Below are positions 6,048 through 32,000 of a stretch of DNA of 32,000 nucleotides, piece after piece; within the stretch, counting starts at the first letter, position 1, and the number at the start of each line of letters is the position of its first letter. Origin of the DNA: Alkalilimnicola ehrlichii MLHE-1 (GTDB lineage Bacteria; Pseudomonadota; Gammaproteobacteria; Nitrococcales; Halorhodospiraceae). The stretch is from assembly GCF_000014785.1 (NCBI RefSeq), contig NC_008340.1, forward strand, positions 2,580,001-2,612,000, given 5' to 3'. The notes below the pieces were generated by a model. The model had not been told where the DNA came from and searched no databases. It worked only from the letters and a program-made list of their open reading frames with translations. A program made the translations under genes and the position numbers.

Positions 6048-7470
6048 GACCGCGCCCCCCGCGCCGCTTCCAGGCACTCATAAAGGTCTCCCCCTGCGGC
6101 GCCGGGAGGACCCGGCCGCCGGCCATCCAGTTGCCGGCCAGCGGCACCCGGGTGAGATAACCGCGCCGGCCACCGAACGCCGCCAGCATCCGCGCCTGTA
6201 CCCGGGTGACCAGCCGATACGCAGCGGGCCGGCGTACCAGCCAGCCCCAGGCCGCCAGGCCCCAGCGGGTGCGGGCAGTGCCCAGACGGGCCTGGAACTG
6301 GCGATGGCGCAGGTTGCGCAGCAGGTCGGGCAGCGGGATGCGCACCGGGCAGACTTCCTGGCAGCGGCCGTTCAGGGTGCAGGCGTTGGGCAGGTCCTTG
6401 GCCTCGCGCAGGCCCAGAGTGAGCGGCGTGAGCACCGAGCCCATGGGACCGGGGTAGACCCAGCCGTAGGCGTGCCCGCCGATCGCGCCGTAGACCGGGC
6501 AATGGTTGATGCAGGCACCGCAGCGGATACAGCGCAGCATCTCGCGGAACTCATCGCCCAGCATGGCGGAGCGGCCATTGTCGATGAGCACCACGTGGTA
6601 GGCCTCCGGCCCGTCGGGATCGGCCGGCCGGCGCGGCCCGGAGAACAGACTGGTGTAACTGGTGATGTCCTGACCGGTGGCGCTGCGGCCCAGCAGGCGC
6701 AGCAGCGTCGTGGTGTCCTCCATGTTGGGCACCACCTTCTCGATCCCGGCCGTCACGATCTGCACCCGGGGCAGCGTGCTGGTCAGATCGCCGTTGCCCT
6801 CATTGGTGACGATGATGTTGCAGCCATTCTCCGCCACCAGGAAGTTGGCCCCGGTGATGCCCACATCCGCCGACAGGTACTTCTGACGCAGCACCTGGCG
6901 CGCCTCGTTGACCAGGTCCGAGACCTCGGTGAGCTTTTTCTTGTAGCCATACTTTGCGTGAAAGCGGTGGAAGAGCTCGGAGATCTCCTCCCGGGTCTTG
7001 TGGATGGCGGGGGCGATGATATGGCTGGGGGGTTCCTCGGCCAGTTGGATGATGTACTCGCCCAAGTCGGTCTCCACCACCTCCAGGCCGTCCGCCTCCA
7101 GGGCTTCGTTGACCCCCACCTCCTCGCCCACCATGGATTTGCCCTTGATGACACTACGGGCCCGGGCCTCGCGGCAGATATCCCGCACAATGTTGCGGGC
7201 CTCCTCCGCGTCCGCCGCCCAGTGCACCTGCCCGCCATTGCGCTGCACGGCCGCCTCGTAGCGCTCCAGGTAGTGGTCGAGATGCTCCAGGGTGTGGTTC
7301 TTGATCTCCACCGCGCGATCGCGCAGGGCGTCGAACTCGGCCAGGGCGCTCACCGCGTTAAAGCGCTTGAGCACAAACCCGTCCTTGGCCCGCGCCAACG
7401 CCGACTGCAGGGTGGGGTTGTGCAGGGCCGCACCGGCGCGCTGGACGAACTCATGGCTGTGCGATTCCAT
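6040..7470 (-). CDS. lutB: Lactate utilisation protein B, 4Fe-4S iron-sulfur protein
   Basis: MESHSHEFVQRAGAALHNPTLQSALARAKDGF..., with two ferredoxin-type clusters, CIRCGACINHCPVY and CTLNGRCQEVCPVRIP. The ATG at 7470 overlaps the lutA TGA (TGATG). The track start at 7716 is an Arg/Gly-rich artefactual extension. Confidence 0.9.
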   Translation of the reverse strand: MESHSHEFVQRAGAALHNPTLQSALARAKDGFVLKRFNAVSALAEFDALRDRAVEIKNHTLEHLDHYLERYEAAVQRNGGQVHWAADAEEARNIVRDICREARARSVIKGKSMVGEEVGVNEALEADGLEVVETDLGEYIIQLAEEPPSHIIAPAIHKTREEISELFHRFHAKYGYKKKLTEVSDLVNEARQVLRQKYLSADVGITGANFLVAENGCNIIVTNEGNGDLTSTLPRVQIVTAGIEKVVPNMEDTTTLLRLLGRSATGQDITSYTSLFSGPRRPADPDGPEAYHVVLIDNGRSAMLGDEFREMLRCIRCGACINHCPVYGAIGGHAYGWVYPGPMGSVLTPLTLGLREAKDLPNACTLNGRCQEVCPVRIPLPDLLRNLRHRQFQARLGTARTRWGLAAWGWLVRRPAAYRLVTRVQARMLAAFGGRRGYLTRVPLAGNWMAGGRVLPAPQGETFMSAWKRRGGRGHE

Positions 7471-8252
7471 CAGTCCGCCTCCGCGTCGCCGATCCCGGGC
7501 CCGTCGGCCATGCCGGCCAACACCTCTGCGGTATGGTAGACGCGCACCGCGGAACCCGCCGCCTTCAACCGCCCCGCCATATTCAGCAAACAGCCCAGAT
7601 CGCCGCCGAGGAGCGCGTCGGCGCCGGTGGCCTCCGCGGCCTTGGCCTTGTCCGCCACCATGCGCCCGGAGATCTCCGGGTACTTGACGCAGAAGGTGCC
7701 GCCGAAACCGCAGCAAACCTCCGCGTCCTCCATCTCCACCAGCTCCAGCCCCTCCACCCGGCGCAACAGCTCACGCGGCTGAGCCTTCACCCCAAGCTGA
7801 CGCAGACCGCTGCAGCTGTCGTGGTAGGTCACCCGGCCGGGAAAGCGGGCCTGGACACTGTCGCCCGCACCGAGCACATCGGTGAGAAAGCGGAACAGCT
7901 CGAAGGAGCGGTCCGCCAGGTGGCGGGCCCGGCTCTGCCATTCGGCGGAGTGGGGAAACAGATCCGGGTACTTGTGCACGCTACCGACACAGGAGCCGGA
8001 GGGTGCCACCAGGTAATCGTAGGGTTCGAAGGCGGTGATCACCGCCCGCGCCAGTTCGGCGGCGGTGATGTTATCGCCGCTGTTGTGGGCCGGCTGCCCA
8101 CAGCAGGTCTGCCGGGTCGGCACCACCACCGTGCAGCCGGCCTGCTCCAGCAGACGGACGGCGGCGAAGCCGACATCGGGCCGGTAAACATCCACCAGGC
8201 AGGTCACCAGCAGACCCACCCGCGGGCCTCGTCGGGATTCGCTTGTCGTCAT
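7470..8252 (-). CDS. lutA: Lactate utilisation protein A, (Fe-S)-binding CCG-domain oxidoreductase
   Basis: RVGLLVTCLVDVYRPDVGFAAVRLLEQAGCTVVVPTRQTCCGQP and CCGFGGTF are CCG motifs typical of LutA/YkgE. GGAG lies 8 nt upstream of the ATG. Confidence 0.9.
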   Translation of the reverse strand: MTTSESRRGPRVGLLVTCLVDVYRPDVGFAAVRLLEQAGCTVVVPTRQTCCGQPAHNSGDNITAAELARAVITAFEPYDYLVAPSGSCVGSVHKYPDLFPHSAEWQSRARHLADRSFELFRFLTDVLGAGDSVQARFPGRVTYHDSCSGLRQLGVKAQPRELLRRVEGLELVEMEDAEVCCGFGGTFCVKYPEISGRMVADKAKAAEATGADALLGGDLGCLLNMAGRLKAAGSAVRVYHTAEVLAGMADGPGIGDAEAD

Positions 8253-8325
8253 CAGTCGGGCTCCGGGTCCGCAGCATCGGCATCTGCCCTGATCCTGCGG
8301 CCTTTCTTATTTGGGCGAAATTATT

Positions 8326-8364
8326 ATTGGTCAAATCACTTGCCCAGCACATGGTCTGACCGAT
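8326..8364. promoter_or_regulatory. Candidate GntR/FadR-type operator half-sites in the lutA / regulator divergent spacer
   Basis: ATTGGTCAAATCAC (8326-8339) and ATGGTCTGACCGAT (8351-8364) resemble the TGGT-N3-ACCA core of PdhR/LldR-type operators. They lie in the only AT-rich part of the 266-bp spacer. Confidence 0.3.
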
Positions 8365-8518
8365 CTCTTATACTTGTCAATAGTCGAGATAGCGCGCCCT
8401 GTCGAGATCGGAAGGGTCCCGGTCAACTGCGGTACAATGCATGCTTAGCAGCCAGGACAGCCCGTAGGGCTAGGCGCACCCGGTGAACCGCCCCGCGGAG
8501 GAGAGGCAATAGCGCACC

Positions 8519-9286
8519 ATGACCTTCAAAACCATAAAACCCGCTCGGCTCTCGGACTCCATCATCCAGCAGATCGAAGAGCTGATCCTCAACGGCGTGC
8601 TCAAGCCCGGCGACCGCCTGCCGGCGGAGCGCGAACTGGCTCAGGAGCTGGATGTCTCCCGGCCCTCGCTGCGCGAGGCCCTGCTCAAGTTGGAGGCACG
8701 GGGGCTGTTGAAGGCGCGGCCCGGGGGCGGCACCTTCGTGGCGGACATCGCTGCGCCGACGGTCACCGAGCCGCTGGTGGAGCTGCTCAAGGACCGGCCC
8801 GAGGCCACCTTCCAGATCCTGGAACTGCGCCACGCCCTGGAGGAGATGGCCGCCTGGTACGCCGCCGAGCGCGCCACCGAGGCCGACCGCGAGATCATCC
8901 GCCGGCGTTTCGAGGCGTTGATGGAGCTCTACGACACCAACGACGACCCGGACCTGGACGCCGAGGCCGACGCCGAATTCCACCTGGCCATCGCCGACGC
9001 CTCCCACAACGTGGCGCTGATCCATGTCGTCCGGGGGCTGTTCTCGCTGCTGCGCAACAGCATTACCCGGTCGCTGCACCAACTGAAGCAGCGCAACGAG
9101 GACTACGCCCCGTTACGCGAACAGCACCGGGCCATCTATGAGGCGATCATGGCGGGGGATGCAGCGCGCGCCAAGGAGGCGGCGAACGTGCACCTGACGT
9201 ACGTGGAGGAGTTCATGCGCAAGGGCATGGCCATGCAGGACCGCGAGGCCGTCTCCCAACGCCGGCTGCGCCGGATGCGGGACTGA
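8519..9286 (+). CDS. GntR/FadR-family transcriptional regulator (LldR/PdhR-like)
   Basis: The N-terminal wHTH is LKPGDRLPAERELAQELDVSRPSLREALLKLEARGLL. The C-terminal FCD-like helical domain includes EFHLAIADASHN. It is divergent from the lutABC-lctP operon. Confidence 0.9.
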   Translation: MTFKTIKPARLSDSIIQQIEELILNGVLKPGDRLPAERELAQELDVSRPSLREALLKLEARGLLKARPGGGTFVADIAAPTVTEPLVELLKDRPEATFQILELRHALEEMAAWYAAERATEADREIIRRRFEALMELYDTNDDPDLDAEADAEFHLAIADASHNVALIHVVRGLFSLLRNSITRSLHQLKQRNEDYAPLREQHRAIYEAIMAGDAARAKEAANVHLTYVEEFMRKGMAMQDREAVSQRRLRRMRD

Positions 9287-9298
9287 CACTGATCACCG

Positions 9299-9684
9299 CG
9301 GGGGGTGGGTGTGGCGGGTGCCCTCCCCCTGGTCACTGCGAGCCCCCGACCCATCACCCGTCACTGCGAGCCCCCGACCCATCACCCGTCACTGCGAGCC
9401 CCCGACCCATCACCCGTCACTGCGAGCCCCCGACCCATCACCCGTCACTGCGAGCCCCGGAGGGGCGCGGCAGTCCACGCCAGGGTATGGATCGCCGCGT
9501 CGCTTCGCTCCTCGCGATGACGGGGGGTGGCGCCCCCACCGTCACTGCGAGCGCGGCCCCGCCCCCACCGTCACTGCGAGCGCGGCCCCACCCCCACCGT
9601 CACTGCGAGGAGGCGAAGCCGACGTGGCAGTCTACCGCCCTGGATCGCCACGGGCCTGCAGCCCTCGCGATGACGGGGAGGGGG
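9299..9684 (+). repeat. Repeat array A of the GTCACTGCGAG...CTCGCGATGAC hairpin family
   Basis: It fills the whole convergent spacer between the regulator and ppiD. Heads fall at 9332/9360/9388/9416/9444 (28-bp period, identical filler CCCCCGACCCATCACCC). A full hairpin unit spans 9444-9523. Further heads fall at 9541/9570/9599 (29-bp period), and a second full unit ends about 9677. Confidence 0.95.
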
Positions 9685-14557: not shown

Positions 14558-15012
14558 GGTGGATCGCCGCGTCGCTGCGCTCCTCGCGATGACGGGGAGA
14601 AACCCTCCGGCCCGCGCGATGACGGGGTGGTGGGCCCCCACCGTCACTGCGAGGAGTGGCCCCCAACCGTCACTGCGAGGAGTGGCCCCCAACCGTCACT
14701 GCGAGGAGCGAAGCGACGTGGCAGTCTACCCCTCTGGATCGCCACGGGCCGTCGGCCCTCGCGATGACGGGGGTGGTGCCCCCTGCCCCCGTCACTGCGA
14801 GCCCCGAAGGGGCGTGGCAGTCCATGCCGGGGTGTGGATCGCCGCGTCGCTTCGCTCCTCGCGATGACGGGGAGAAACCCTCCGGCCCGCGCGATGACGG
14901 GGTGATGGGCCCCCACCGTCACTGCGAGGAGGCGAAGCCGACGTGGCAGTCTACCCCTCTGGATCGCCACGGGCCTTCGGCCCTCGCGATGACGGGGGTG
15001 GTGCCCCGCGAT
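14558..15012 (+). repeat. Repeat array B of the hairpin family (clpX-lon spacer)
   Basis: Tail-only modules at 14558-14630. Heads at 14643/14669/14695 (26-bp period, filler GAGTGGCCCCCAACC). Full units run about 14695-14770, 14791-14870 and 14918-14995. Confidence 0.95.
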
Positions 15013-19545: not shown

Positions 19546-20240
19546 GGACTGCCGCGCCCCCTTCGGGGGCTCGCAGTGACAGTGGAGGCACCACCCCCCG
19601 GTTATCGCGAGGGCCGCCACCTCCTCCCCGTCATCGCCAGGGCCGCCACCTCCTCCCCGTCATCGCCAGGGCCGCCACCTCCTCTCCGTCATCGCGAGGG
19701 CCGAAGGCCCGTGGCGATCCAGAGGGGTAGACTGCCACGTCGGCTTCGCCTCCTCGCAGTGACAGTGGGGGTACACCACCGCCCGTCATCGCGAGGAGCG
19801 CCCCTCCCCCCGTCATCGCGAGGGCCGAAGGCCCGTGGCGATCCAGAGGGGTAGACTGCCACGTCGGCTTCGCCTCCTCGCAGTGACAGTGGGGGTACAC
19901 CACCGCCCGTCATCGCGAGGAGCGCCCCTCCCCCCGTCATCGCGAGGGCCGAAGGCCCGTGGCGATCCAGGGCGGTAGACTGCCACGTCGGCTTCGCCTC
20001 CTCGCAGTGACAGTGGGGGTACACCACCGCCCGTCATCGCGAGGAGCGCCCCTCCCCCCGTCATCGCGAGGGCCGAAGGCCCGTGGCGATCCAGGGCGGT
20101 AGACTGCGACGTCGGCTTCGCCTCCTCGCAGTGACGGTGGGGGTGGGTCCCCGCTCGCAGCGACGGCGGGGCTTCCCCCGTCATCGCGAGGGCCGCCCCT
20201 CCCCTCGTCATCGCGAGGAGCGAAGCGACGCGGCGATCCA
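19546..20240 (-). repeat. Repeat array C of the hairpin family (inverted orientation)
   Basis: Tail micro-tandem at 19601/19630/19659/19688 (29-bp period). Four composite units follow with a 124-bp period (GTCATCGCGAGGGCCGAAGG at 19688/19812/19936/20060). Degenerate modules end at about 20240, 25 bp from the GIY-YIG stop. Confidence 0.95.
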
Positions 20241-20264
20241 TACGCCGCCCAGGACCGCCACGCC

Positions 20265-20552
20265 TTAAATGATGTCGTGATACAAATCCCGCCACCCCGG
20301 ATTCATTGACTCTATCAACCCCACCTTCCGATTCCGGTTTCCCGACTTCAACTGCTTCTCCCGGCCGATGGCCGATGTCATGGTTTCATGGACTTCATAC
20401 CACACCAGCCGATGCAGGCCGTACCGTCGGGTAAACCCATCCACAAAGCCGGATTTATGCTGCCAGACACGTTGCACCAGGTTGCTGGTGACGCCGACAT
20501 AAAGCGTGCCGTTCCGGCCATTGGTCATGATATAGACACAGGGTTGGTTCAT
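20265..20552 (-). CDS. Stand-alone GIY-YIG nuclease (URI domain, COG2827/YhbQ-like)
   Basis: 95 aa: CVYIMTNGRNGTLYVGVTSNLVQRVWQHK...GFTRRYGLHRLVWYEVHETMTSAIGREKQLKSGNRNRKVGLIE (GIY...YVG, catalytic R and E). A strong AAGGAGG lies 7 nt upstream. GC is visibly lower (one 60-nt line spot-counted at 52%). Confidence 0.9.
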   Translation of the reverse strand: MNQPCVYIMTNGRNGTLYVGVTSNLVQRVWQHKSGFVDGFTRRYGLHRLVWYEVHETMTSAIGREKQLKSGNRNRKVGLIESMNPGWRDLYHDII

Positions 20553-20585
20553 ATGAGCCCTCCTTGGCCCTGAGTGATTCGCCGC

Positions 20586-21390: not shown

Positions 21391-21673
21391 ACTGCACAGA
21401 GGGGCGTGGCAGTCCAGGCGGCGGGTGGATCGCCGCGTCGCTTCGCTCCTCGCGATGACGGGGGTGGGTGCCGCCCCCACCGTCACTGCGAGGAGGCGAA
21501 GCCGACGTGGCAGTCTACCGCTCTGGATCGCCACGGGCCTTCGGCCCTCGCGATGACGGGGGTGCCCCGTTCCTCGTTGATTCGGGCCCGCGCAGCGGGG
21601 AGGGGGGCTCGCGATGACGGGGTGGGTGCCGCCCCCACCGTCACTGCGAGCCCCGGAGGGGCGTGGCAGTCCA
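21391..21673 (+). repeat. Repeat array D of the hairpin family
   Basis: A degenerate head plus GGGGCGTGGCAGTCC...TGGATCGCCGCGTCGCTTCGCTCCTCGCGATGACGG, a full unit at 21481-21560, a tail-only module about 21608-21620, and a head plus half unit at 21639-21673. Confidence 0.9.
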
Positions 21674-21814: not shown

Positions 21815-23002
21815 TCAGATCTGCCGCAACGCACGCTCCAAATGCCCAAAGCCGATCCGCTCCTGTTCCAGCCTCAGGCAATCCTGCAGGGTATCTTCCC
21901 GCAGGTCCTGGAAAAGCGCCTGTTCCGCCTCGGTGAGTAGCGAAAGGCGCCCTGTGAACCGCTTGTTAGCCGGCTCCCGCCCCCACATCTCACGGTGCAT
22001 CTCCAACGTCTCGCGGTCCATGAGCAGGGATCGGGCGTGGGGCAGGCGGGTGCGCAGGCGGTGGAGCATGGCGAAGCCGTGGGTGTCGATATCGCCCCAG
22101 TAGTGGACCGCCACCTCCCGCAGCCAGCCAACCCCCGCCAACCGCTCCAGCCCATAGCCCAGACCGAAGATCACCAGGCCGCCCGGGTGGTCGGGGAAGG
22201 CCAGGCCATTGATCTCGTTCTCGGTGATGAAGACCCGGCGCACCGGCAGGCGCAGGTCGGCGAACTGTTCCGGGGGCACCGAGAGGTCGCTCAGCCCCTG
22301 CACGTAGAGGGCGGGGTCCAGCAACCGGAAGCGCACCAGCGCCGGCTTCTCCCGCAGCCCGAAACGCCGTTCGAAGCCCCGGGCGCCGGTGGCCGACGGG
22401 TCGATGGCGGCCTCGGGCAGCACCGCGTCCAACAACTCGGTGAACAGCCGGCGCCGGGCCTCGATGAACTTGGTGTCCACCCCGGGGATGTCCAGTTGCC
22501 GCAGATAGATACCGGGCCGGGGGTGGGCGCGGAACCAGTCCAGCACGTCCAGAATGCGCGGCCAGGCCCCGGCCTCCGCCAGCGCCTGCAGCGGCCGCCG
22601 GGCCAGCCAGTCTGCCAGCGACGGGAAGCGGCGCAGGGTCTCCCCGGCCAGCGCCCGAAAGCGGGCCGCCTCCCGCTCACGGCCGATCAGGCGCAAGCCG
22701 TCCGCCTCGCTCGGGACAATCGCCCCGGCGGGCAGGTCATTGGCCCCATGCACCCGGTGGTTCACCCGCCGCCACTCGATCCCGTAGCCGTACCCCCGCT
22801 CATCGCGGCTGCCGGCCTGAAGCTGCTGCACCCAACGGCGCACGGCGACGAAGTCCTCGGCCAGATCCCGGGAGGTGGGGCGGCGCAGCCGCAGCGTGAG
22901 CGGAAAGAGCGACTCGCCGCGCACATAGGCGGCCAGCCAATCGCCGCGCTCCCATTGGCGCAACAACTGCTGGCGCAGCTCGTCGGGTGTCGTCCAACTC
23001 AT
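21815..23002 (-). CDS. jetD: Wadjet JetD (DUF3322 plus Toprim/DUF2220 nuclease subunit)
   Basis: From the internal ATG at 23002 (ATGA overlap with the jetC stop): MSWTTPDELRQQLLRQWERGDWL... Toprim acidic motifs are VFITENEINGLAF and YWGDIDTHGFAMLHRLR. The track start at 23278 lies inside jetC and is rejected. Confidence 0.9.
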   Translation of the reverse strand: MSWTTPDELRQQLLRQWERGDWLAAYVRGESLFPLTLRLRRPTSRDLAEDFVAVRRWVQQLQAGSRDERGYGYGIEWRRVNHRVHGANDLPAGAIVPSEADGLRLIGREREAARFRALAGETLRRFPSLADWLARRPLQALAEAGAWPRILDVLDWFRAHPRPGIYLRQLDIPGVDTKFIEARRRLFTELLDAVLPEAAIDPSATGARGFERRFGLREKPALVRFRLLDPALYVQGLSDLSVPPEQFADLRLPVRRVFITENEINGLAFPDHPGGLVIFGLGYGLERLAGVGWLREVAVHYWGDIDTHGFAMLHRLRTRLPHARSLLMDRETLEMHREMWGREPANKRFTGRLSLLTEAEQALFQDLREDTLQDCLRLEQERIGFGHLERALRQI

Positions 23003-26000
23003 GGCGCGATACGCTGGCGGGCGGCCTTCTCCGCCTGGTACTCCGCAATGGTGAGATTGCGCACCATAGACTCGCGCCCCTCCACGTTGTGCACAAACCC
23101 CACGCTGGCCACGAAGGGCTCGATGATGTGGATCTTCTGCAACGGGGTGACGATCAGCAACTGCAGGTTCAACCGCTGGAACAGCTCCAGGCCGTAACGG
23201 GCGGACTCGTCCGAGCCGCGGCCGAAGGCCTCGTCGATGACCACGAAGCGGAACGAGCGCGAGCGGGTCTCGCCCCACTCCAGCCCGAACTGGTAGGCCA
23301 GGCTCGCGGCCAGCACGGTATAGGCCAGCTTCTCCTTCTGCCCCCCGGACTTGCCCCCGGAATCGGCGTAGTGCTCGTACTCGCTGTCGTCCTCGCGCCA
23401 GCGTTCGGAGGCGGAGAAGACGAACCAGTTGCGCACATCGGTGACCTTGCGGGTCCAGCGCCGGTCCAGGTCGGTGGTTCCCTCCCGGCCGCGGAAGCGC
23501 TCGATGATGGCCTTCACCTGCAGGAACTTGGCCTCGGAGTACTGATCGTCGTCCGAGCCGGTCACCGCCCCCTCGGTGCAGGCGCGCAGGCTCTGCTGAA
23601 AGTCGCGGATCTCCGCGTCCGGGGCGCTTTCCGCCATCAGGGTGATGTAACGGTTGTCGTTGTAGTCGATCTCACGCAGCGAGCGGTTGATGGTGCCGAT
23701 GCGCTCCAGGATCGCCTGGCGCTCCCGATGCAGCCGGCTCTGGAAGGCGGCCACCTCGCGGATGGTGTTTTCGTTGAGCAGCTCCTTGAAGCGGGCCTCG
23801 AAGCGGGGCAGATCATCTGCCTGCAACTGCTCGAGCATGGCGCGATAGTCGCCGGCGGCCTCGACGCTCACATCCACCTCCTGGCTGTCCAGCGGCCAGG
23901 CGTCCTGGTAGCGGCGCATGGCGTCGATGATGCGGTCGCGCAACTGCGCCAGGCGCTTGTCCTCCGCGTCGATCTTGCCCTGCAGCCATTCGCGCATGTC
24001 CTTCTCGCGGTTGTCGCAGGACTCCACCGTCAGGGTGTGCTCACCCAGGGCCTCGTCGCGCATGGCGGCCAGGCGCGGAAAGTAGGTCTGCTGCGCCTCT
24101 TCCGGTGTCGACTCCAACAGCGTGTGGCAATCCTGCCACTGGGCCCGGGCCTGCTCCTGTTTCAGCTCGTTGGCGCTGATCTCGCGATCCGCCTGGCGGA
24201 CCTCGCCCTCGACGCCCTTGATGGTCTTTTCCAGCTCATCCAGTTGCCGCTCCAGCGCCCGGAGCACGTCCGAGCCCTCGGCCAGCTCCCGGTACTCGCG
24301 CTCCAGCGCCTCAATGTCGGCAGCCAGCGGACGCCAGTCCAGGGCCTGAAAATCCTGGAACAGGGTCAGCTCCTGGATGGTGTCGCGGCGGGCCTCCTGG
24401 GCCCGCCGTTCGTCCTCCCAGCCACCGATGCGCTTGGCGATGGCCTGCATGCGCTCGGCCAGCCCGTCGGCCTCGGCCTCCAGCGCGGCGATCTTCGCCT
24501 CGTTGCTCCAGCCCAGCACATAACGGGTGCGGTCATCGATACGGTGGCGGTCGTCCTTCTCGTGGCGGCCACCGCCGGCCTTTATCTGCCCGGCACGGGT
24601 GATCGCCCGCTTCTCACGACGGAATTGCTGCAGATCGGTGCAGCAAGCGTAATCGAAGCGCTGCGCCAGCGCCTGCTCCAGCCAGGTATAAAACGCCGAC
24701 TCCGGCCGGATGGCCAGCTTGCGCACCAGCGAGTCGGCGTGCAGCGACGGCGGCGGCGCGTCGCGGGCTTCGCGCACGCGGTAGTAGACCAACCGCCCCC
24801 GCAACCGGGTGCGGTCCACCCACTCGGCGACGCGGGCGTAGTGGCTGTCGGGCACCAGCAGCGACAGGCCGAAGTTGTGCAGCACCCGTTCGATGGCGCC
24901 CTCCCAGTCGCGCTCGTCGTCACGCACCTGCAGCAGTTCACCGGCGAAGGGCAGGTCCTCGGCGGGCACCTCCAGCGCGCGGCACAGGGCGGTGCGGATG
25001 GCGAGGATCTCCGCCGGGATGTTGGAGCGTCGACCGCGCAGCGATGCCAGCTCGGCATCCAGGTCCTCGTGCCGCCCCTTGAGCTGGTGCAGCTCCACGC
25101 TGGCCTCCGTAATCCGGTTCTGCAGCTCGCTGCGGGCGGTCTCGGTGGCCTCGCGGGCCACGGTGAGCGCCTCGCGGTTGGCGTGAAAGACCTCGTCGCT
25201 GGTGGCATCGGGCAGCTCCAGCCGGTGCGCCAGCCGCCGGTAGCGCTCGGCCTTCTCGCTGCGCTCCGCCTTCTCCCGCCGCTTGCGCTCCAGCTCCGCC
25301 TTGATCCGCTCCAGGCGGTCGCCGCCGTTCTCGGCGATCGCCTGCTTGAGCTCGTCGCGCCGGGCCCGCTGCTCGGTGAGCCGAGTGCTCAGCCCCTCAA
25401 TGCGCTGCTGCAGCCGCTCGTGCTCCTGGCCCAGGTTGTCCAACCGGCGGTCCAGCAGCTCGGCCTTCAGCGAGGCGAACCAGGGCCGCAACGCCTGGCG
25501 GCAATCGCGCAGCTCCCGGGCCCGGGTGGCCCGTTGGTCGTGCTCGTCGGCATCGCGCACCAGGGGAATCAACTGCGCCACCTGCGACTTGGCCTTCAAC
25601 ACCGCCTCGTGGGCCCGGTTGAGGTCGTCGAAATGGCGGATCAGCGCCTCGATCCGCTCCTCGACGGGGAAGGCCTCCAGCATGTGACTGCGCACGAACT
25701 CGGTCAGGTTACCCACCGACTTCATGGAGACCGTCTGGTTAAAGAGCTCCAGGGCCTGCTCATTGTCGATGCCGAAGCGCCGCCGGAAGGCACCGCCGTA
25801 GGGCGGAAAGGTGTCGTACAACTCCACGTGGGGCAGCCCGCGCAGGCGCTTGCGCAGGTTGGCCAGGTCGGTGCCGAAATTGGCGAAGTGCTCGGCGATG
25901 TTCAGCGGGCGGTCGGCGACCACGAAAAACCGCGCCGGCTGGCCCTGGGTGTCCTTCATCCAGAAGACCTGGGCCAGGGTCACATCGTGGCCGAAGCCCT

Positions 26001-26391
26001 CGTTGTGGAAGTGGCCGAGGATGACCGAGTAGTTGTTATGGTCGCGCAGGCCCACCGGCTTGCTGGCCAAGCCGGCGTCGCTACGCTCCGACTTGTAGTA
26101 GCCGAGGACGTAAGAGCGCAGGCTGCGCTCCTTGGCCTCCGCGCCGGCGGCCTTGTTGTAGGTGATCCGCTGAGCCGGCACCAGCAGCGTGGTGATGGCG
26201 TCCACCAAGGTGGACTTGCCGGAGCCGATGTCCCCGGTCAGCAGGCTGTTGTCGCCGCCGGGCTGCAGCGACCAGACGCGGTCGTGGAAGGTGCCCCAGT
26301 TGAACACCTCCAGCCGCTGGAGGCGAAAACCGGTGCGCTGGTCGGAGCCGGCGAAATCCAGTCCCTGGGTTTCCATACGATGGGGTTCCAT
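22999..26391 (-). CDS. jetC: Wadjet JetC (SMC/MukB-like ATPase)
   Basis: 1130 aa from the ATG at 26391. It has FRLQRLEVFNWGTFHDRVW, Walker A LLTGDIGSGKSTLVDAI, a long central Glu/Arg/Leu-rich coiled-coil region, and Walker B FRFVVIDEAFGRGSD. Confidence 0.92.
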   Translation of the reverse strand: MEPHRMETQGLDFAGSDQRTGFRLQRLEVFNWGTFHDRVWSLQPGGDNSLLTGDIGSGKSTLVDAITTLLVPAQRITYNKAAGAEAKERSLRSYVLGYYKSERSDAGLASKPVGLRDHNNYSVILGHFHNEGFGHDVTLAQVFWMKDTQGQPARFFVVADRPLNIAEHFANFGTDLANLRKRLRGLPHVELYDTFPPYGGAFRRRFGIDNEQALELFNQTVSMKSVGNLTEFVRSHMLEAFPVEERIEALIRHFDDLNRAHEAVLKAKSQVAQLIPLVRDADEHDQRATRARELRDCRQALRPWFASLKAELLDRRLDNLGQEHERLQQRIEGLSTRLTEQRARRDELKQAIAENGGDRLERIKAELERKRREKAERSEKAERYRRLAHRLELPDATSDEVFHANREALTVAREATETARSELQNRITEASVELHQLKGRHEDLDAELASLRGRRSNIPAEILAIRTALCRALEVPAEDLPFAGELLQVRDDERDWEGAIERVLHNFGLSLLVPDSHYARVAEWVDRTRLRGRLVYYRVREARDAPPPSLHADSLVRKLAIRPESAFYTWLEQALAQRFDYACCTDLQQFRREKRAITRAGQIKAGGGRHEKDDRHRIDDRTRYVLGWSNEAKIAALEAEADGLAERMQAIAKRIGGWEDERRAQEARRDTIQELTLFQDFQALDWRPLAADIEALEREYRELAEGSDVLRALERQLDELEKTIKGVEGEVRQADREISANELKQEQARAQWQDCHTLLESTPEEAQQTYFPRLAAMRDEALGEHTLTVESCDNREKDMREWLQGKIDAEDKRLAQLRDRIIDAMRRYQDAWPLDSQEVDVSVEAAGDYRAMLEQLQADDLPRFEARFKELLNENTIREVAAFQSRLHRERQAILERIGTINRSLREIDYNDNRYITLMAESAPDAEIRDFQQSLRACTEGAVTGSDDDQYSEAKFLQVKAIIERFRGREGTTDLDRRWTRKVTDVRNWFVFSASERWREDDSEYEHYADSGGKSGGQKEKLAYTVLAASLAYQFGLEWGETRSRSFRFVVIDEAFGRGSDESARYGLELFQRLNLQLLIVTPLQKIHIIEPFVASVGFVHNVEGRESMVRNLTIAEYQAEKAARQRIAP

Positions 26392-26393
26392 GC

Positions 26394-26993
26394 TCACTGC
26401 CCGTCGCCGGCGGTAGTGGTGGCCTCGGCGTGCTCGCGGTACTCGGCCAGGCGCTGGTCGAACTCCGCCAGCCACTGGGCGTCGATATAGGCCTTGATGA
26501 TCCGGCGCACCTCGTACTGATTATCCTGCCCGCGCAGCCGGCGCAGGAAACCCAGCTCCACCACCTTGTTGATGTCCGCGTGCACCCGGTCCACCAACTT
26601 CGCCTCGTTGGCGCTGGCCGGCAGGAAGACACGGATCAGCTCCACGATCTGCTCCCGCGAGAGGATCAGCCGCGGGTCGCCGCCGCCGGCATCGTGCTCC
26701 ACCAGCTTCTTGCGCAGCAGCGCCAGCAGCAGGCTTACCGGGTAGGTGAGCTGGCGGCGCGGCACCAGCCGGGGCAGCTCCGGCTCGTCCTCGGCGGGGG
26801 TCCGCTGGCGCAGGCAGGCGTGGCCCTCGGCCTCGTCCAGCATCAGCTCCAGCCCGAGCACGGCCACGTGGTCGCGCACCCGCGCCTGGTGGTCCTCAAG
26901 CACCTGCCAGTAGCGAGGGTTCTGGTCCTTGTACAGCACACCCTTGAACAGGGTGATCAGCATGGCCGAGAAGTCGGCGTCCTGTTCGCTCAT
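26394..26993 (-). CDS. jetB: Wadjet JetB (DUF4194, kleisin-associated KITE-like subunit)
   Basis: 199 aa from the ATG at 26993: MSEQDADFSAMLITLFKGVLYKDQNPRYWQVLEDHQARVRDHVAVLGLELMLDEAEGHACLRQ. This pattern, the size, and the position between jetA and jetC are all as in JetB. Confidence 0.85.
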   Translation of the reverse strand: MSEQDADFSAMLITLFKGVLYKDQNPRYWQVLEDHQARVRDHVAVLGLELMLDEAEGHACLRQRTPAEDEPELPRLVPRRQLTYPVSLLLALLRKKLVEHDAGGGDPRLILSREQIVELIRVFLPASANEAKLVDRVHADINKVVELGFLRRLRGQDNQYEVRRIIKAYIDAQWLAEFDQRLAEYREHAEATTTAGDGQ

Positions 26994-26997
26994 AGGC

Positions 26998-28434
26998 TCA
27001 ACGGCAGAAGATAACCTGCGGTAGCGTGGCGCTGCGGGCAACGCCGTCACGGTCGCGCCAGTATACGGTCTGCTGGCGGGTTTCATCGATCACGCTGCGG
27101 TGATCCTCTGTGGCCAGGGCCAGGTAGACCACCAGTTCGGCCAGGCCCTGCTCCAGCGGGTGTTGCTCCAACAGGGCCGCCAGGCTGATCTGCTCGCGGG
27201 TCTGCAGCGCCCGGCGCACCTGCCCTTGCAGCCGGGTGCGGTCCACGTAGGCCTGGTCGAACAGCGCCGCCACGTCGCCCTCCGCCTCGCCCGCCTCCAG
27301 CACCTGCTGCTCGATGCGCGGCGTAACCGGCGGACTGAAGAGCGGGCGCTCCATGGGCAGCTCCACCCGGGGCGCGGGTTCGTCCAGGGCCATGGTGAAA
27401 TCCCGGGGCGGGGCTTCCCGCAGGTGCAGGGCCTGCTGCTCCAACTCGCGGATCAGCCCCATGATGCGGCGGTTCTCCAGCCAGGCCTGATCGTCCAGAT
27501 AGCGGCGCAACTGCTCGGAGAGCCGCGCCACCACCCGCTGGGTGTGCTCGCCCGCCGCCAGCCAGTCGTAATGGATGCGGGCCAGGGTCGGGTCGGGCGC
27601 CACCTCGGTCACGGGCTCGAGCGCCAGGGTGCGCTCGAGCAGTTCGGTCAACTCCTCCTGGCGAGCCGGGGACATGAGCAGATCCCAGAAGGCGCGGAAG
27701 CTGCGGCCCTGGTCGGAATCGGCGATGCGGTCGTGCTCGCCGAAGACCTGGTCGAGGATATCGCCCTTGCCGCCCTCCCAGGTGGCCACCTGCTCGCGCA
27801 CCTGGCGGTCCAGCGCGCGGAAGTTGGCCTCCACCTGGCGGAAGTCCCCCAGCAGCCCGCGGGCCGTGTCGGCCATCTGCAGAAAACGCTCGCGCAGGCG
27901 GGTGGGGTCCATCAGGTTCAGGTGCCCGGCCCGCACCTCGTCGATCTCGCGCTCGATGGCGTCGCGCCGCGCCTCCAGATCGCGCAGGCGGGCCTCCGGG
28001 TCGGTCTCCGCCCCCTCCACGATCTGTTTCAGCAGATCAAACACCAGGGTGAGCCGCGACTCCGCACCGATAAAGTGGGCCTGCTCCAGGCCCGCCAGCC
28101 ACTGGATCGCCTGCTCGGTGGCCGGGGTGAGGTCGTAGTGGGGTTCGTCGCTGTGCTGCGGGTAGTACTTGCGCAACCAACCGCGCTCATCGGCAGCCCA
28201 ATATGCCAGGTACTCGTGAGCGCCCTGCTGGTAGGCCTCGTCACCCAACCGGGCGCGCAGGTGGTAGAGGTAGTCCTCCAGCGCATTCTCCAGCTCCGAG
28301 GCCGGCAGCGCCCGCACGTTGGGCACCACGAAACAGCGGTGCAGAAAGGCCACGACCATCGGCGCGTTACCGGCCTGCAACAGGCGCCACCCCGGATGGG
28401 TGCGCCGCAGGCTGTATAGGTGATCGTGATCCAT
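26998..28434 (-). CDS. jetA: Wadjet JetA (DUF3375, kleisin-like subunit)
   Basis: 478 aa: MDHDHLYSLRRTHPGWRLLQAGNAPMVVAFLHRCF...LEDYLYHLR...YLAYWAADERGWLRKYY. It is the first gene of the four-gene operon. Confidence 0.88.
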   Translation of the reverse strand: MDHDHLYSLRRTHPGWRLLQAGNAPMVVAFLHRCFVVPNVRALPASELENALEDYLYHLRARLGDEAYQQGAHEYLAYWAADERGWLRKYYPQHSDEPHYDLTPATEQAIQWLAGLEQAHFIGAESRLTLVFDLLKQIVEGAETDPEARLRDLEARRDAIEREIDEVRAGHLNLMDPTRLRERFLQMADTARGLLGDFRQVEANFRALDRQVREQVATWEGGKGDILDQVFGEHDRIADSDQGRSFRAFWDLLMSPARQEELTELLERTLALEPVTEVAPDPTLARIHYDWLAAGEHTQRVVARLSEQLRRYLDDQAWLENRRIMGLIRELEQQALHLREAPPRDFTMALDEPAPRVELPMERPLFSPPVTPRIEQQVLEAGEAEGDVAALFDQAYVDRTRLQGQVRRALQTREQISLAALLEQHPLEQGLAELVVYLALATEDHRSVIDETRQQTVYWRDRDGVARSATLPQVIFCR

Positions 28435-28499: not shown

Positions 28500-29265
28500 T
28501 GTGGATCGCCGCGTCGCTGCGCTCCTCGCGATGACGGAGGGGTGGGTGCCCCCCACCGTCACTGCGAGCGCGGATCCGCCCCCACCGTCACTGCGAGGAG
28601 CGAAGCGACGTGGCAGTCTACCCCTCTGGATCGCCACGGGCCTCCGACCCTCGCGATGACGGGGGGTGTTACCCCACCGTCACTGCGAGGAGGCGAAGCC
28701 GACGTGGCAGTCTACCCCTCTGGATCGCCACGGGCCTCCGGCCCTCGCGATGACGGGGGGTGTTGCCCCCACCGTCACTGCGAGGAGGCGAAGCCGACGT
28801 GGCAGTCTACCCCTCTGGATCGCCGCGGGCCTCCGGCCCTCGCGATGACCGGGGGGTGTTGCCCCCACCGTCACTGCGAGGAGGCGAAGCCGACGTGGCA
28901 GTCTACCCCTCTGGATCGCCACGGGCCTCCGGCCCTCGCGATGACGGGGGGTGTTGCCCCCACCGTCACTGCGAGGAGGCGAAGCCGACGTGGCAGTCTA
29001 CCCCTCTGGATCGCCGCGGGCCTTCGGCCCTCGCGATGACGGGGGGTGTTGCCCCCACCGTCACTGCGAGGAGGCGAAGCCGACGTGGCAGTCTACCCCT
29101 CTGGATCGCCGCGGGCCTTCGGCCCTCGCGATGACGGGGGGTGTTGCCCCCACCGTCACTGCGAGGAGGCGAAGCCGACGTGGCAGTCTACCGCCCTGGA
29201 TCGCCGCGGGCCTCCGGCCCTCGCGATGACCGGGGGGAAAGCCTCCGGCCCTCGCGATGACGGGG
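28500..29265 (+). repeat. Repeat array E of the hairpin family (type array, 95-bp units)
   Basis: Heads GTCACTGCGAG at 28558, 28587, 28679, 28774, 28870, 28965, 29060 and 29155. Seven near-identical full units have periods of 92-96 bp. Two tail-only modules close the array at about 29265. Confidence 0.97.
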
Positions 29266-29390: not shown

Positions 29391-30575
29391 ATGTTAAGCG
29401 ACCAAGACCTGCTTGAACGCCTACGGAACGGGGAGTCCCGTCGGGTGGAGTTCAAACCCTCCACGGCGCAAAATACCGCGATCCGGAGGGCCATCTGTGC
29501 ATTCGCCAACGATCTTGATGGGCAGGGCGAGATCGGCGTGATCTTCGTGGGGCTCAACGATGACGGGACCTGCAAAGGGATCGAACATCCAGACCGCGAC
29601 CAGAAGAAGCTATCCGACTGGGCCTTGGGGGGCGACATCCTCCCCCTTCCTGACGTGGAAATCGGTTATCGCGAGCTGGACGGTTGCCCTGTCATAGTCG
29701 CCGAGATACGCCCCCACCAAGAACCCCCGGTACGCTACCAGGGCCAGGCGTGGGTCAGGGTTGGCACCACCAACCGCCGCGCTACTCCGGAACAGGAGAG
29801 ACGTTTGGCGGAGCGACGGCGGGGCGGAGACCTTCCCTTCGACCATCGGCCGGCCCCCGGCGCCAGTCTTGATGACCTCGATCTGAGGTACTTCGAGCGC
29901 GAGTACCTGCCCAATGCCGTCGCACCGGAGGTCCTGGAAGAGAACAACCGTAGCATCGAAGATCAACTCAACGCCCTCAGGTTTCTCACCCAGGGCCAAG
30001 TCAACCACGGTGCTCTGCTCGTCCTGGGGCACGACCCGACCGCCTATATACCGGGGGCCTACGTGCAGTTCCTACGCATCGACGGAACCGAGCTGGGCGA
30101 CCCCATCAAGGACGAAAAGAGACTGACCGGCAACCTGCCCGAGGTCATGGCGCAGCTGGACGAGTTGTTGGAGGTGCACATCCAGGTTGCTGTCGACATC
30201 GAGGCCGGATCACGGGAGCAGCGCCAGCCCGACTACCCCGTTGTTGCCTTGCAGCAACTCACCCGGAACGCCCTCATCCATCGCGCCTACGAAGGCAGCC
30301 ACGCGCCGGTCCGCGTCTATTGGTTCAGAGACCGGGTGGAAATTCAGAACCCCGGCGGACTCTACGGCCAAGTCACCACCGACAACTTCGGTCAGGGTGT
30401 CACCGATTACCGCAACCCCCTGATAGCAGAAGCCATGCATATTCTCGGCTACGTACAGAGATTCGGGTTCGGCATCCCATTGGCACAGCGCCACCTGCGG
30501 GAAAACGGCAACCCCGACCCCGATTTTCAGTTCGCGCCAGAGTTCCTGGCCGTCACCGTGAGGGCAGTGACGTGA
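29391..30575 (+). CDS. Schlafen/AlbA_2-domain protein with a C-terminal HATPase_c_4-like domain (COG2865-like), no terminal wHTH
   Basis: The N-terminal motif set is LLERLRNGESRRVEFKPS...AICAFANDLDGQGEIGVIFVGLNDDGTCKGI. The C-terminal segment is QLTRNALIHRAYEGSHAPVRVYWFRDRVEIQNPGGLYG...YRNPLIAEAMHILGYVQRFGFGIPL. Domain names come from motif memory, not from a search. Confidence 0.85.
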   Translation: MLSDQDLLERLRNGESRRVEFKPSTAQNTAIRRAICAFANDLDGQGEIGVIFVGLNDDGTCKGIEHPDRDQKKLSDWALGGDILPLPDVEIGYRELDGCPVIVAEIRPHQEPPVRYQGQAWVRVGTTNRRATPEQERRLAERRRGGDLPFDHRPAPGASLDDLDLRYFEREYLPNAVAPEVLEENNRSIEDQLNALRFLTQGQVNHGALLVLGHDPTAYIPGAYVQFLRIDGTELGDPIKDEKRLTGNLPEVMAQLDELLEVHIQVAVDIEAGSREQRQPDYPVVALQQLTRNALIHRAYEGSHAPVRVYWFRDRVEIQNPGGLYGQVTTDNFGQGVTDYRNPLIAEAMHILGYVQRFGFGIPLAQRHLRENGNPDPDFQFAPEFLAVTVRAVT

Positions 30576-31543: not shown

Positions 31544-32000
31544 CGGTGGGGGCACCCCCCGTCATCGTGATGAGTGCAGGCCCTCCCCCCGGCATCGCGA
31601 GGGCCGAAGGCCCGTGGCGATCCAAGGCGGTAGACTGCCACGTCGGCTTCGCCTCCTCGCAGTGACGGTGTGGGCAACACCCCCCGTCATCGCGAGGGCC
31701 GAAGGCCCGTGGCGATCCAAGGCGGTAGACTGCCGCGTCGGCTTCGCCTCCTCGCAGTGACGGTGTGGGCAACACCCCCCGTCATCGCGAGGGCCGAAGG
31801 CCCGTGGCGATCCAAGGCGGTAGACTGCCACGTCGGCTTCGCCTCCTCGCAGTGACGGTGGGGTAACACCCCCGTCATCGCGAGGGCCGAAGGCCCGCGG
31901 CGATCCAGGGCGGTAGACTGCCACGTCGGCTTCGCCTCCTCGCAGTGACGGTGGGGGCAACACCCCCCGTCATCGCGAGGGCCGAAGGCCCGCGGCGATC
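31543..32000 (-). repeat. Repeat array F of the hairpin family (inverted orientation, runs off the window end)
   Basis: Tails G(T/G)CATCGCGAGGGCCGAAGG fall at 31591, 31686, 31781, 31874 and 31969 (period 93-95 bp). The reverse complement of a unit is near-identical to array E units, including the linker GGGGGGTGTTGCCC. Confidence 0.95.

Follow-up and report, generated by a model that had tools for sequence, protein, structure and literature searches.

What is a small, stand-alone nuclease gene doing at the edge of an array of hairpin repeats? The question is raised by a stretch of 32,000 nucleotides from Alkalilimnicola ehrlichii MLHE-1 (contig NC_008340.1, positions 2,580,001 to 2,612,000), called the window here, in which a gene of the GIY-YIG type, referred to as ssn, lies next to one of six arrays of CGTC-tagged hairpin units. 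Very probably, ssn encodes an Ssn-type single-stranded DNA endonuclease that has the hairpins of these arrays as its cognate sites. The evidence consists of family membership, the embedding of related genes between hairpins in other genomes, the conservation of critical flanking bases, the co-variation of protein clade and hairpin, purifying selection on the gene, and the lineage-specific occurrence of ssn together with its array. A first-pass annotation of this DNA had guessed at such a partnership; the guess was right in substance, but the pairing of enzyme and repeat had already been published in 2025 (PMC11893778).

The ssn product is 100% identical to the MLHE-1 protein annotated as "GIY-YIG nuclease family protein". 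It matches the Pfam GIY-YIG domain (PF01541, E=8.6e-15) over residues 4-74 and contains no further domain. An AlphaFold model, calculated with 43 homologues as input, has a pLDDT of 93.8 and shows one compact GIY-YIG fold, for which the nearest solved structures are 1ZG2 (a UPF0213 protein), the N-terminal domain of UvrC and Slx1. The motif residues Tyr7 (in VYI), Tyr18 (in YVG), Arg28 and Glu65 are invariant or nearly so across the family, and Tyr7, Tyr18 and Glu65 are invariant among the 43 homologues. This 95-residue open reading frame (ORF) with its key motifs had been recognised in the first-pass annotation, as had the AAGGAGG ribosome-binding site (RBS) and the short distance from the stop codon to the array (given there as 25 bp; 26 nucleotides to the first complete unit), and all three stand. 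The CCAAGGAGGGC context of the RBS is also present 5' of an 82%-identical gene in a relative, locus L087.

The base composition of ssn is low, as had also been pointed out: 53.5% GC compared to 67.5% for the whole window (estimated earlier as about 52% in one counted line and roughly 70% for the rest of the window). No 288-bp stretch of the window has a lower GC than the gene, which ties with a second minimum (0.545, in 288-bp windows) at about 8250-8590, around ORFs 7470-8252 and 7533-8486. Throughout the Ssn family, GC averages 9 points under that of the host, everywhere. As proof of a foreign origin of ssn, low GC can be accepted in part only, because low values at the first and second codon positions follow from the conserved protein sequence; the informative part is the third position, at 0.70 versus about 0.9 (0.80-0.94 for the neighbouring genes). 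Against relatives, the ratio of non-synonymous to synonymous divergence is 0.03-0.15, and the gene is under strong purifying selection. The spacer between ssn and the upstream TauE gene was inspected and contains neither a hairpin unit nor a promoter-like site, and on these grounds ssn is probably co-transcribed with TauE.

The Ssn family has been described by Chenal et al. (2025, Nat Commun, PMC11893778) as single-domain GIY-YIG proteins of about 94 residues (CDD cd10448, GIY-YIG_unchar_3), with SsnA of Neisseria meningitidis as the founding member and homology to Neisseria SsnA at E<1e-10 as the operational criterion. On the flanks of ssn genes lies either the hairpin repeat NTS (CGTCATTCCCGCGMAVGCGGGAATCYRG) or its degenerate form, SRM; an SRM is found nearby in 71% of Ssn homologues and on both sides in 42%, and among genomes in which SRMs number more than 200, 81% have an Ssn gene (PMC11893778). 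N. meningitidis SsnA binds NTS sequence-specifically, as single-stranded DNA only, and cuts it a few nucleotides upstream, while double-stranded DNA and RNA are not acted upon. Cleavage depends most on the three bases 5' of the palindrome and binding most on the C just 3' of it, and natural transformation is modulated by the enzyme in N. meningitidis (PMC11893778).

For comparison we used the N. gonorrhoeae orthologue of SsnA, an NTS-flanked ORF of 94 residues (L081, 1498-1782) with Tyr6, Tyr17 and Glu64. Its source sequences, NZ_CP119140.1 and NZ_CP119142.1, are labelled plasmids but, at 2.17 Mb, are evidently chromosomes. The ssn product is 60% identical to the orthologue over 93 residues (BLASTP E=3e-42; tblastn 8e-31), and the alignment is gapless, superimposing Tyr7, Tyr18 and Glu65 on Tyr6, Tyr17 and Glu64. 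On the strength of this identity and the matching catalytic residues, we place the window gene in the Ssn family by sequence; the models of Pfam and NCBIfam do not resolve it as a separate subfamily. Beyond the single domain, the length of 94-95 residues and the catalytic residues, the window system shares with the family a multi-copy, oriented hairpin with a 5' (C)GTC tag, a stem that starts with A and a C directly 3' of the stem, and the layout of unit, gene and inverted unit is present in relatives. It differs in several respects. The window hairpin, 32-34 nucleotides long, has two 5-bp helices and an internal loop, whereas NTS has a perfect 8-9-bp stem; the protein has Gly71 and Gln67, position 71 being an invariant Trp in the canonical family; upstream, the window copy is preceded by a strong RBS of its own and not by a unit; and the window units are amplified as tandem dimer arrays.

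A search of a phage collection for homologues of ssn gave one weak match and no sign of a phage-borne gene, and the E. coli genomes searched with ssn gave no DNA match. Matches in a plasmid collection were considered as a sign of plasmid mobility and rejected, as they are mostly to chromids or mislabelled chromosomes.

The repeats are abundant. The GTCAYYGCSAGG motif occurs 53 times in the window, against 0.07 matches expected, and the 32 kb contain 48-49 complete units and 65 heads. Each complete unit is closed by a 5-bp helix, which a conserved purine-rich (GA-rich) internal loop separates from a second helix, variable and likewise of 5 bp, capped by a 3-nucleotide loop; the internal loop has the conserved context GCGAG...CGYGGC. 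Two types of head are present, type 1 reading (C)GTC-ATCGC-GA-GGGCC-GAA-GGCCC-GTG-GCGAT-C(CA) and type 2 (C)GTC-ACTGC-...-GCAGT-C(TA). Regular expressions for NTS and SRM having given no matches, a generic unit finder was written (GTC-W-Y, a 5-bp closing helix, then C). Because helix 1 and the flanking bases are built into this finder, the flanks were re-checked with a definition based on the closing helix only, and covariation was taken from helix 2 only. With the closing-helix definition, GTC precedes 48 of 49 hairpins (CGTC in 42, TGTC in four and GGTC in two) and C follows all 49, so that the positions critical for SsnA are kept in the window units. Tails are CCA in 29 units and CTA in 19, and heads start with AT or AC. 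In an alignment of 21 distinct 32-nucleotide units from the window and its relatives, helix 2 is 84% paired, with two-sided compensatory changes at three of its five pairs; what is left of non-standard pairing consists of G·A and A·G oppositions. Units pair as tail-to-tail dimers about 10 nucleotides apart, in tandem periods of 95 and 124 bp with 97% identity, and their orientation alternates within the arrays. At the gathering threshold, Rfam finds three tRNAs in the window and no known RNA family for the hairpin units.

Hairpins with this tag have been described before. Di Nocera et al. (2013, BMC Genomics, PMC3733652) defined a CGTC-tagged REP superfamily that includes the Neisseria repeats, dRS3/NTS being their CGTC-1 family. 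They located most of these repeats 3' of genes and in convergent spacers, found no transposase and concluded that no dedicated enzyme exists; the main text of their paper makes no mention of A. ehrlichii. The window units resemble this superfamily in the CGTC or TGTC tag, the stem starting with AT, the CCA tail of type 1, and the arrangement in intergenic dimers and clusters, mostly downstream of genes. The four described families have uninterrupted 8-9-bp stems, loops of 4-5 nucleotides and mainly head-to-head dimers (PMC3733652), whereas the window units have an interrupted stem, a 3-nucleotide loop, tail-to-tail dimers with spacers of about 10 nucleotides and, in type 2, a CTA tail. They are a structural variant of the superfamily outside its four described families. 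Two species listed by Di Nocera et al., A. lipoferum and S. meliloti, have Ssn homologues flanked by CGTC hairpins. At the ssn of N. aromaticivorans, a further species on their list, CGTC-type hairpins are seen in the flanks by eye only; they have no AT-start stem, and the unit finder gave no match.

Within the window, having an array nearby is commonplace: 11 of the 22 protein genes have a unit no more than 200 nucleotides from an end, so the adjacency of ssn to its array is not above chance there, and the significance of the link between ssn and the hairpins comes from other genomes only. We compared 80 homologous loci, with homologues 61-75% identical to the ssn product, spanning alpha-, beta- and gammaproteobacteria, Chloroflexota and Latescibacterota (Thioalkalivibrio, Parvibaculum, Thiobacillus, many Betaproteobacteria, Chloroflexota/Dehalococcoidia, Latescibacterota and others). 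As controls, 277 ORFs from the same 80 loci were used, the criterion being a CGTC hairpin within 150 nucleotides. A unit is found upstream of 56 of the 80 homologues (70%; controls 6.5%), downstream of 61 (76%; controls 6.9%) and on both sides of 46 (57.5%; controls 0.7%). Fisher p-values are about 1e-30 to 1e-35 and the enrichment for both sides is about 80-fold. A cross-genome proximity check of this kind had been put forward in the first-pass annotation, and its outcome is positive. Up to 50 nucleotides from the gene, there are 10-15 units per kb; beyond 1.2 kb, the density has fallen to 0.2-0.4 per kb, and shuffled sequence gives 0.08 per kb.

Spacing and orientation are stereotyped. In 21 loci, the end of a same-strand unit is separated from the ATG by 14-16 nucleotides; in 13, a unit on the opposite strand begins 3-4 nucleotides past the stop codon. 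The gene is thus bracketed by inverted hairpins. The 3' unit of the window gene has the orientation usual for 3' units at homologous loci, and the closest homologue with known context (L087, 82% identity) is flanked by hairpins on both sides. We conclude that ssn-family genes are embedded between units of the CGTC hairpin superfamily. Where the 5' unit is in its stereotyped position, 14-16 nucleotides from the ATG, no Shine-Dalgarno sequence is evident in between (for example, ...GGAATCCAGTACCCTGCGCCG-ATG, among the 80 loci). In the clade of A. ehrlichii and Thioalkalivibrio, a strong RBS takes the place of an adjacent 5' unit, which suggests a different control of expression and perhaps domestication.

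Protein and hairpin vary together. An exact clade of the neighbour-joining tree is made up of the 15 proteins with AYYGCGAG hairpins in their flanks. All 15 have Gly at position 71, where the 66 others have Trp without exception, and all 15 have Gln at position 67, found in just five of the 66. Four further Gly71 proteins, chosen from a protein search blind to their context, have GCGAG hairpins in four of four cases. Bootstrap support for the GCGAG clade in a UPGMA tree is weak (78/500), and the diagnostic residue is the stronger evidence. In the model, residue 71 is in the turn after the helix that bears the catalytic Glu65. The co-variation may reflect a single ancestral event, making it a lead to a specificity determinant rather than proof of one; the exchange of Trp71 for Gly, with Gln67, tracks the hairpin class in every case examined and offers a testable determinant for the engineering of single-stranded DNA nucleases. 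The published SRM pattern matches at two of 14 loci of the GCGAG class and at 50 of the 66 others; over all 80 loci it is present in 65%, and on both sides in 35%, near the published 71% and 42%. A whole hairpin class is missed by this pattern, and SRM-based surveys undercount pairs of Ssn and repeat. That the pattern misses the GCGAG class, that hairpin class and protein clade track each other, and that an empty site exists (see below), all go beyond the paper of Chenal et al., as far as we have checked. The earlier suggestion of a repeat-dedicated nuclease is supported by the embedding at the 80 loci, by this co-variation and by the 60% identity to the SsnA orthologue; activity on the repeats is predicted by homology.

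Comparison with relatives shows that the presence of ssn and array C at this site is lineage-specific. The 1073 bp between the TauE and DUF218 stop codons in MLHE-1, of which array C makes up 692 bp, correspond to a spacer of 61 bp in the close relatives L084-L086 (TauE about 81% identical), which contains neither ssn nor a unit. In Alkalispirillum mobile, TauE is directly followed by tRNA-Leu and tig. L087 is a closer relative still, with a JetA that is 92% identical and a synonymous divergence (dS) of 0.35 in jetA relative to MLHE-1, but its ssn is only 82% identical, with a dS of 1.78, and is at a different site, 2 kb upstream of jetA, flanked by two dimers of about 80 bp that mirror each other and contain the two unit types of the window. 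Concrete, if indirect, evidence that the ssn gene moves comes from the empty site and from the excess of synonymous divergence, and both bear on the question that links Ssn to the origin of the CGTC REPs. At the orthologous clpX-lon spacer of A. mobile, three units of identical types are present; therefore, the repeat family is older than the insertion of ssn at the TauE site.

The window neighbours TauE, DUF218, Tig, JetD and ClpP were sought at the 80 loci and none is shared, which rules out a conserved chromosomal position; a general association of ssn with the Wadjet system was likewise considered and ruled out, no JetD having been found at the other 80 loci. Across phyla, the product is 62-82% identical. 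Distant homologues lie between sufB and sufC, between gltA and lpxB, and upstream of recA, and CGTC hairpins flank all three. Among the homologues inserted with their hairpins are those on plasmid AZO_p3 of Azospirillum lipoferum 4B (L091, 1483-1776), in L095/L096 (1001-1294) and in L094 (1001-1288); settings among these loci are the suf operon (sufB/sufC), a position immediately 5' of recA and one directly after an IS110 transposase gene. Insertion of ssn into housekeeping spacers seems to be tolerated.

A mechanism may be transposed from Neisseria SsnA to this system. Once single-stranded, a unit would fold on the strand reading 5'-CGTC-hairpin-C; Ssn would bind this hairpin by recognising its sequence and the adjoining 3' C, and would cut the tagged strand a few nucleotides 5' of the CGTC, here in the C-rich run that precedes each unit. 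Double-stranded DNA and RNA would not be substrates. As unit orientation alternates, sites should be present on both strands of an array. Both the cutting of window units by the window protein and the cut position are predicted from homology with Neisseria SsnA. By the same analogy, the most likely role is the cutting of unit-bearing single-stranded DNA during DNA uptake, conjugation or replication, shaping recombination; generating or spreading the repeats is a possible further role.

Several observations weigh against assigning these hairpins to ssn. The published NTS and SRM patterns have no matches in the window (0 each), and match no GCGAG-type unit; the stem of the window units is interrupted and recognition may differ from that by SsnA. 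Single units fold with modest energies of -6 to -9 kcal/mol (z-scores from -2 to +0.2). The window gene has a unit on its 3' side only, the 5' side being occupied by its own RBS in the 33 bp to the TauE stop codon. Shared ancestry among the 80 loci makes them less independent than the p-values imply. Activity on these units is predicted from homology, for a clade known here from its genes, and the role of SsnA in transformation may not carry over to A. ehrlichii. Finally, there are two head types (ATCGC and ACTGC) for one ssn in 32 kb, and one of them may be served by a paralogue elsewhere or by no enzyme.

Chance adjacency of a generic small GIY-YIG protein, or of a YhbQ-like repair nuclease, would agree with the one-sided unit of the window copy and with the half of the window genes that abut an array, but it is at odds with the roughly 80-fold enrichment over control ORFs and the two-sided flanking in other genomes, and is effectively excluded. 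Sequence also separates ssn from such proteins. The comparison with E. coli YhbQ made in the first-pass annotation fits loosely: as a stand-alone GIY-YIG domain of about 100 residues, the UPF0213/YhbQ group (1ZG2, BH0048) provides the closest solved fold, so the likeness in fold stands, but the closeness in sequence does not, as the best match in the PDB, 1ZG2, is marginal (E=0.0024, 21 bits, about 26% identity) next to the 60% identity with the SsnA orthologue. We know of no reported repeat association for the UPF0213 group. It is also conceivable, although unlikely in our judgement, that the hairpins are host elements acting at the RNA or DNA level (terminators, mRNA stabilisers, supercoiling sites) and that ssn is a selfish, homing-type hitch-hiker using them as landing sites. 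The position of the units, for the most part 3' of genes and in convergent spacers as described for CGTC REPs, the presence of repeats at orthologous A. mobile sites independently of ssn at the TauE locus, and the low GC and patchy placement of ssn are all compatible with this. The catalytic fold is shared with enzymes of the I-TevI type, and it is plausible that ssn is selfish or mobile; however, its product scores 17.1 bits against TIGR01453, the group I intron endonuclease model, for which the cut-off is 56, and has no extra domain. I-TevI-type enzymes have a separate DNA-binding domain, reside in introns or free-standing in phage genomes, and cut double-stranded DNA. The co-variation of residue 71 with hairpin class indicates mutual adaptation, although it is silent on host benefit versus parasitism. 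SsnA does not bind RNA and alters the outcome of transformation in N. meningitidis, and the presence of ssn in 81% of the genomes richest in SRMs (more than 200) also argues against a mere hitch-hiker (PMC11893778).

A further proposal extends the cognate-site reading and is not exclusive of it: Ssn might be the mobilising enzyme of CGTC-type REPs, a GIY-YIG counterpart of RAYT/REPIN or IS200/IS605, with a unit-ssn-unit cassette that moves itself through single-stranded DNA and leaves the arrays as products. The MLHE-1 locus would then be a recent insertion, with the empty site in sister lineages as its counterpart, and the Gly71/GCGAG clade a second specificity class missed by the published motif. 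We entertain this tentatively, as a possibility short of an even chance. No transposase was found for CGTC REPs (Di Nocera et al. 2013, PMC3733652), and an architecture like that of an insertion sequence (IS) has been raised as a hypothesis by Chenal et al. (PMC11893778). The inverted hairpins on either side of the gene at most loci resemble terminal inverted repeats, and in L087 the gene lies between mirror-image dimers of about 80 bp. The empty site (61 versus 1073 bp), the unrelated positions of the gene in related genomes with no neighbour shared among 80 loci, the excess dS relative to jetA (1.78 versus 0.35), the 62-82% identity across phyla and the GC deficit of 9 points relative to the host all favour mobility. 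Like RAYT/REP and IS200/IS605 TnpA systems, this one has a small nuclease gene flanked by, and predicted to be specific for, multi-copy single-stranded DNA hairpins, repeats in inverted dimers and an enzyme that is possibly domesticated. The likeness is one of analogy only, as those enzymes are HUH Y1 transposases with a GTAG tag, in contrast to the GIY-YIG fold and CGTC tag here. To our knowledge, strand transfer has been demonstrated for Y1 enzymes and for no Ssn, and for single-domain GIY-YIG enzymes we know of cleavage only, not of strand transfer or ligation. In addition, target-site duplications and defined element ends were not found at these loci, A. mobile has identical units at orthologous spacers, so that the repeats predate the insertion of ssn at this site, and insertion versus deletion at the TauE site is not fully polarised. 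The arrays look tandem-amplified (periods of 95 and 124 bp, 97% identity), for which recombination or slippage would suffice without an enzyme.

The features of the locus are collected in Table 1. Of the long spacers in the 3' two-thirds of the window, most are occupied by the six arrays; units are mostly 3' of genes and in convergent spacers. Array C, with its ten complete units, had been taken for the largest array; that description belongs to the array at 28504-29261, which has 15 (at 28504-29230). Within array C, units form the tail-to-tail dimers about 10 nucleotides apart with the 124-bp tandem period and 97% identity, and head-only copies are present at 19589-19703.

Table 1. Features of the ssn locus and hairpin arrays in the window (window coordinates)
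Feature	Coordinates	Strand	Description
ssn gene	20265..20552	-	95-residue single-domain GIY-YIG nuclease, Ssn family; predicted catalytic Tyr7, Tyr18, Arg28, Glu65; clade-diagnostic Gln67, Gly71
Shine-Dalgarno AAGGAGG	20559..20565	-	6 nt 5' of ssn ATG
Spacer from ssn to upstream TauE stop codon	20553..20585	-	33 bp
Proximal CGTC-tagged hairpin unit cGTCATCGCGAGGAGCGAAGCGACGCGGCGATCcat	20206..20241	+	complete unit 20207-20238; opposite ssn strand, 26 nt past ssn stop
ssn + array C segment between TauE and DUF218 stop codons	19513..20585		1073 bp; array C = 692 bp
Array C	19547..20238		both head types (GTCATCGC...GCGATC, GTCACTGC...GCAGTC); 10 complete units
Array, same repeat family	9332..9674		4 complete units + head-only tandem copies
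Array, same repeat family, lon-clpX spacer	14562..14993		7 complete units
Array, same repeat family, between TauE and jetD	21428..21671		4 complete units
Largest array of window, same repeat family, 5' of jetA	28504..29261		15 complete units; 95-bp period, 97% inter-copy identity
Array, same repeat family, running off window end	31585..32000		at least 8 complete units

Head-only tandem arrays occur at 9332-9458, 9531-9609, 14633-14708 and 19589-19703, with periods of 26-29 bp and up to 4.5 copies, some of them 100% identical. Such copies consist of the CGTC head and the 5' half-stem and, as they do not have the 3' half, are unable to form the hairpin. Long ORFs run through the arrays on both strands at 19576-20295, for example 19813-20295 on the reverse strand (160 residues), with peptides such as ...LAMTGGG... 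and ...VIARAEGPWRS...; these are almost certainly spurious products of GC-rich repeats and risk being annotated as hypothetical proteins. The main value of the analysis lies in the correct classification of the locus, which ties the intergenic arrays of A. ehrlichii, and the spurious ORFs within them, to an Ssn-type nuclease.

Not every nuclease-type gene next to an array in the window is ssn, contrary to what had been stated: JetD of the Wadjet system (21815-23278) ends about 145 nucleotides from the array at 21428-21671. The Wadjet jetABCD operon (21815-28434, reverse strand) is complete; it encodes DUF3375/JetA, JetB/MksE, an SMC-like JetC and JetD with a JetD_C domain, and is bracketed by the arrays at 21428-21671 and 28504-29261; in L087, units are also present just upstream of jetA. 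Near this operon and between two arrays is a gene with Schlafen/AlbA_2 and HATPase_c_4 (RecG-C-like) domains (29391-30575, forward strand), followed between the same two arrays by a gene for a ParA/MinD-like ATPase (30320/30572-31543, forward strand). The stretch with the Schlafen and ParA genes beside the Wadjet operon may be a defence or mobile island. In A. mobile (L082, RCDA01000007.1), positions 1-610 contain fragments of an IS200/IS605-type Y1_Tnp and of TnpB (Cas12f1-like_TNB), about 770 bp from the unit at 1378-1409; it is conceivable that these derive from an alternative mobiliser.

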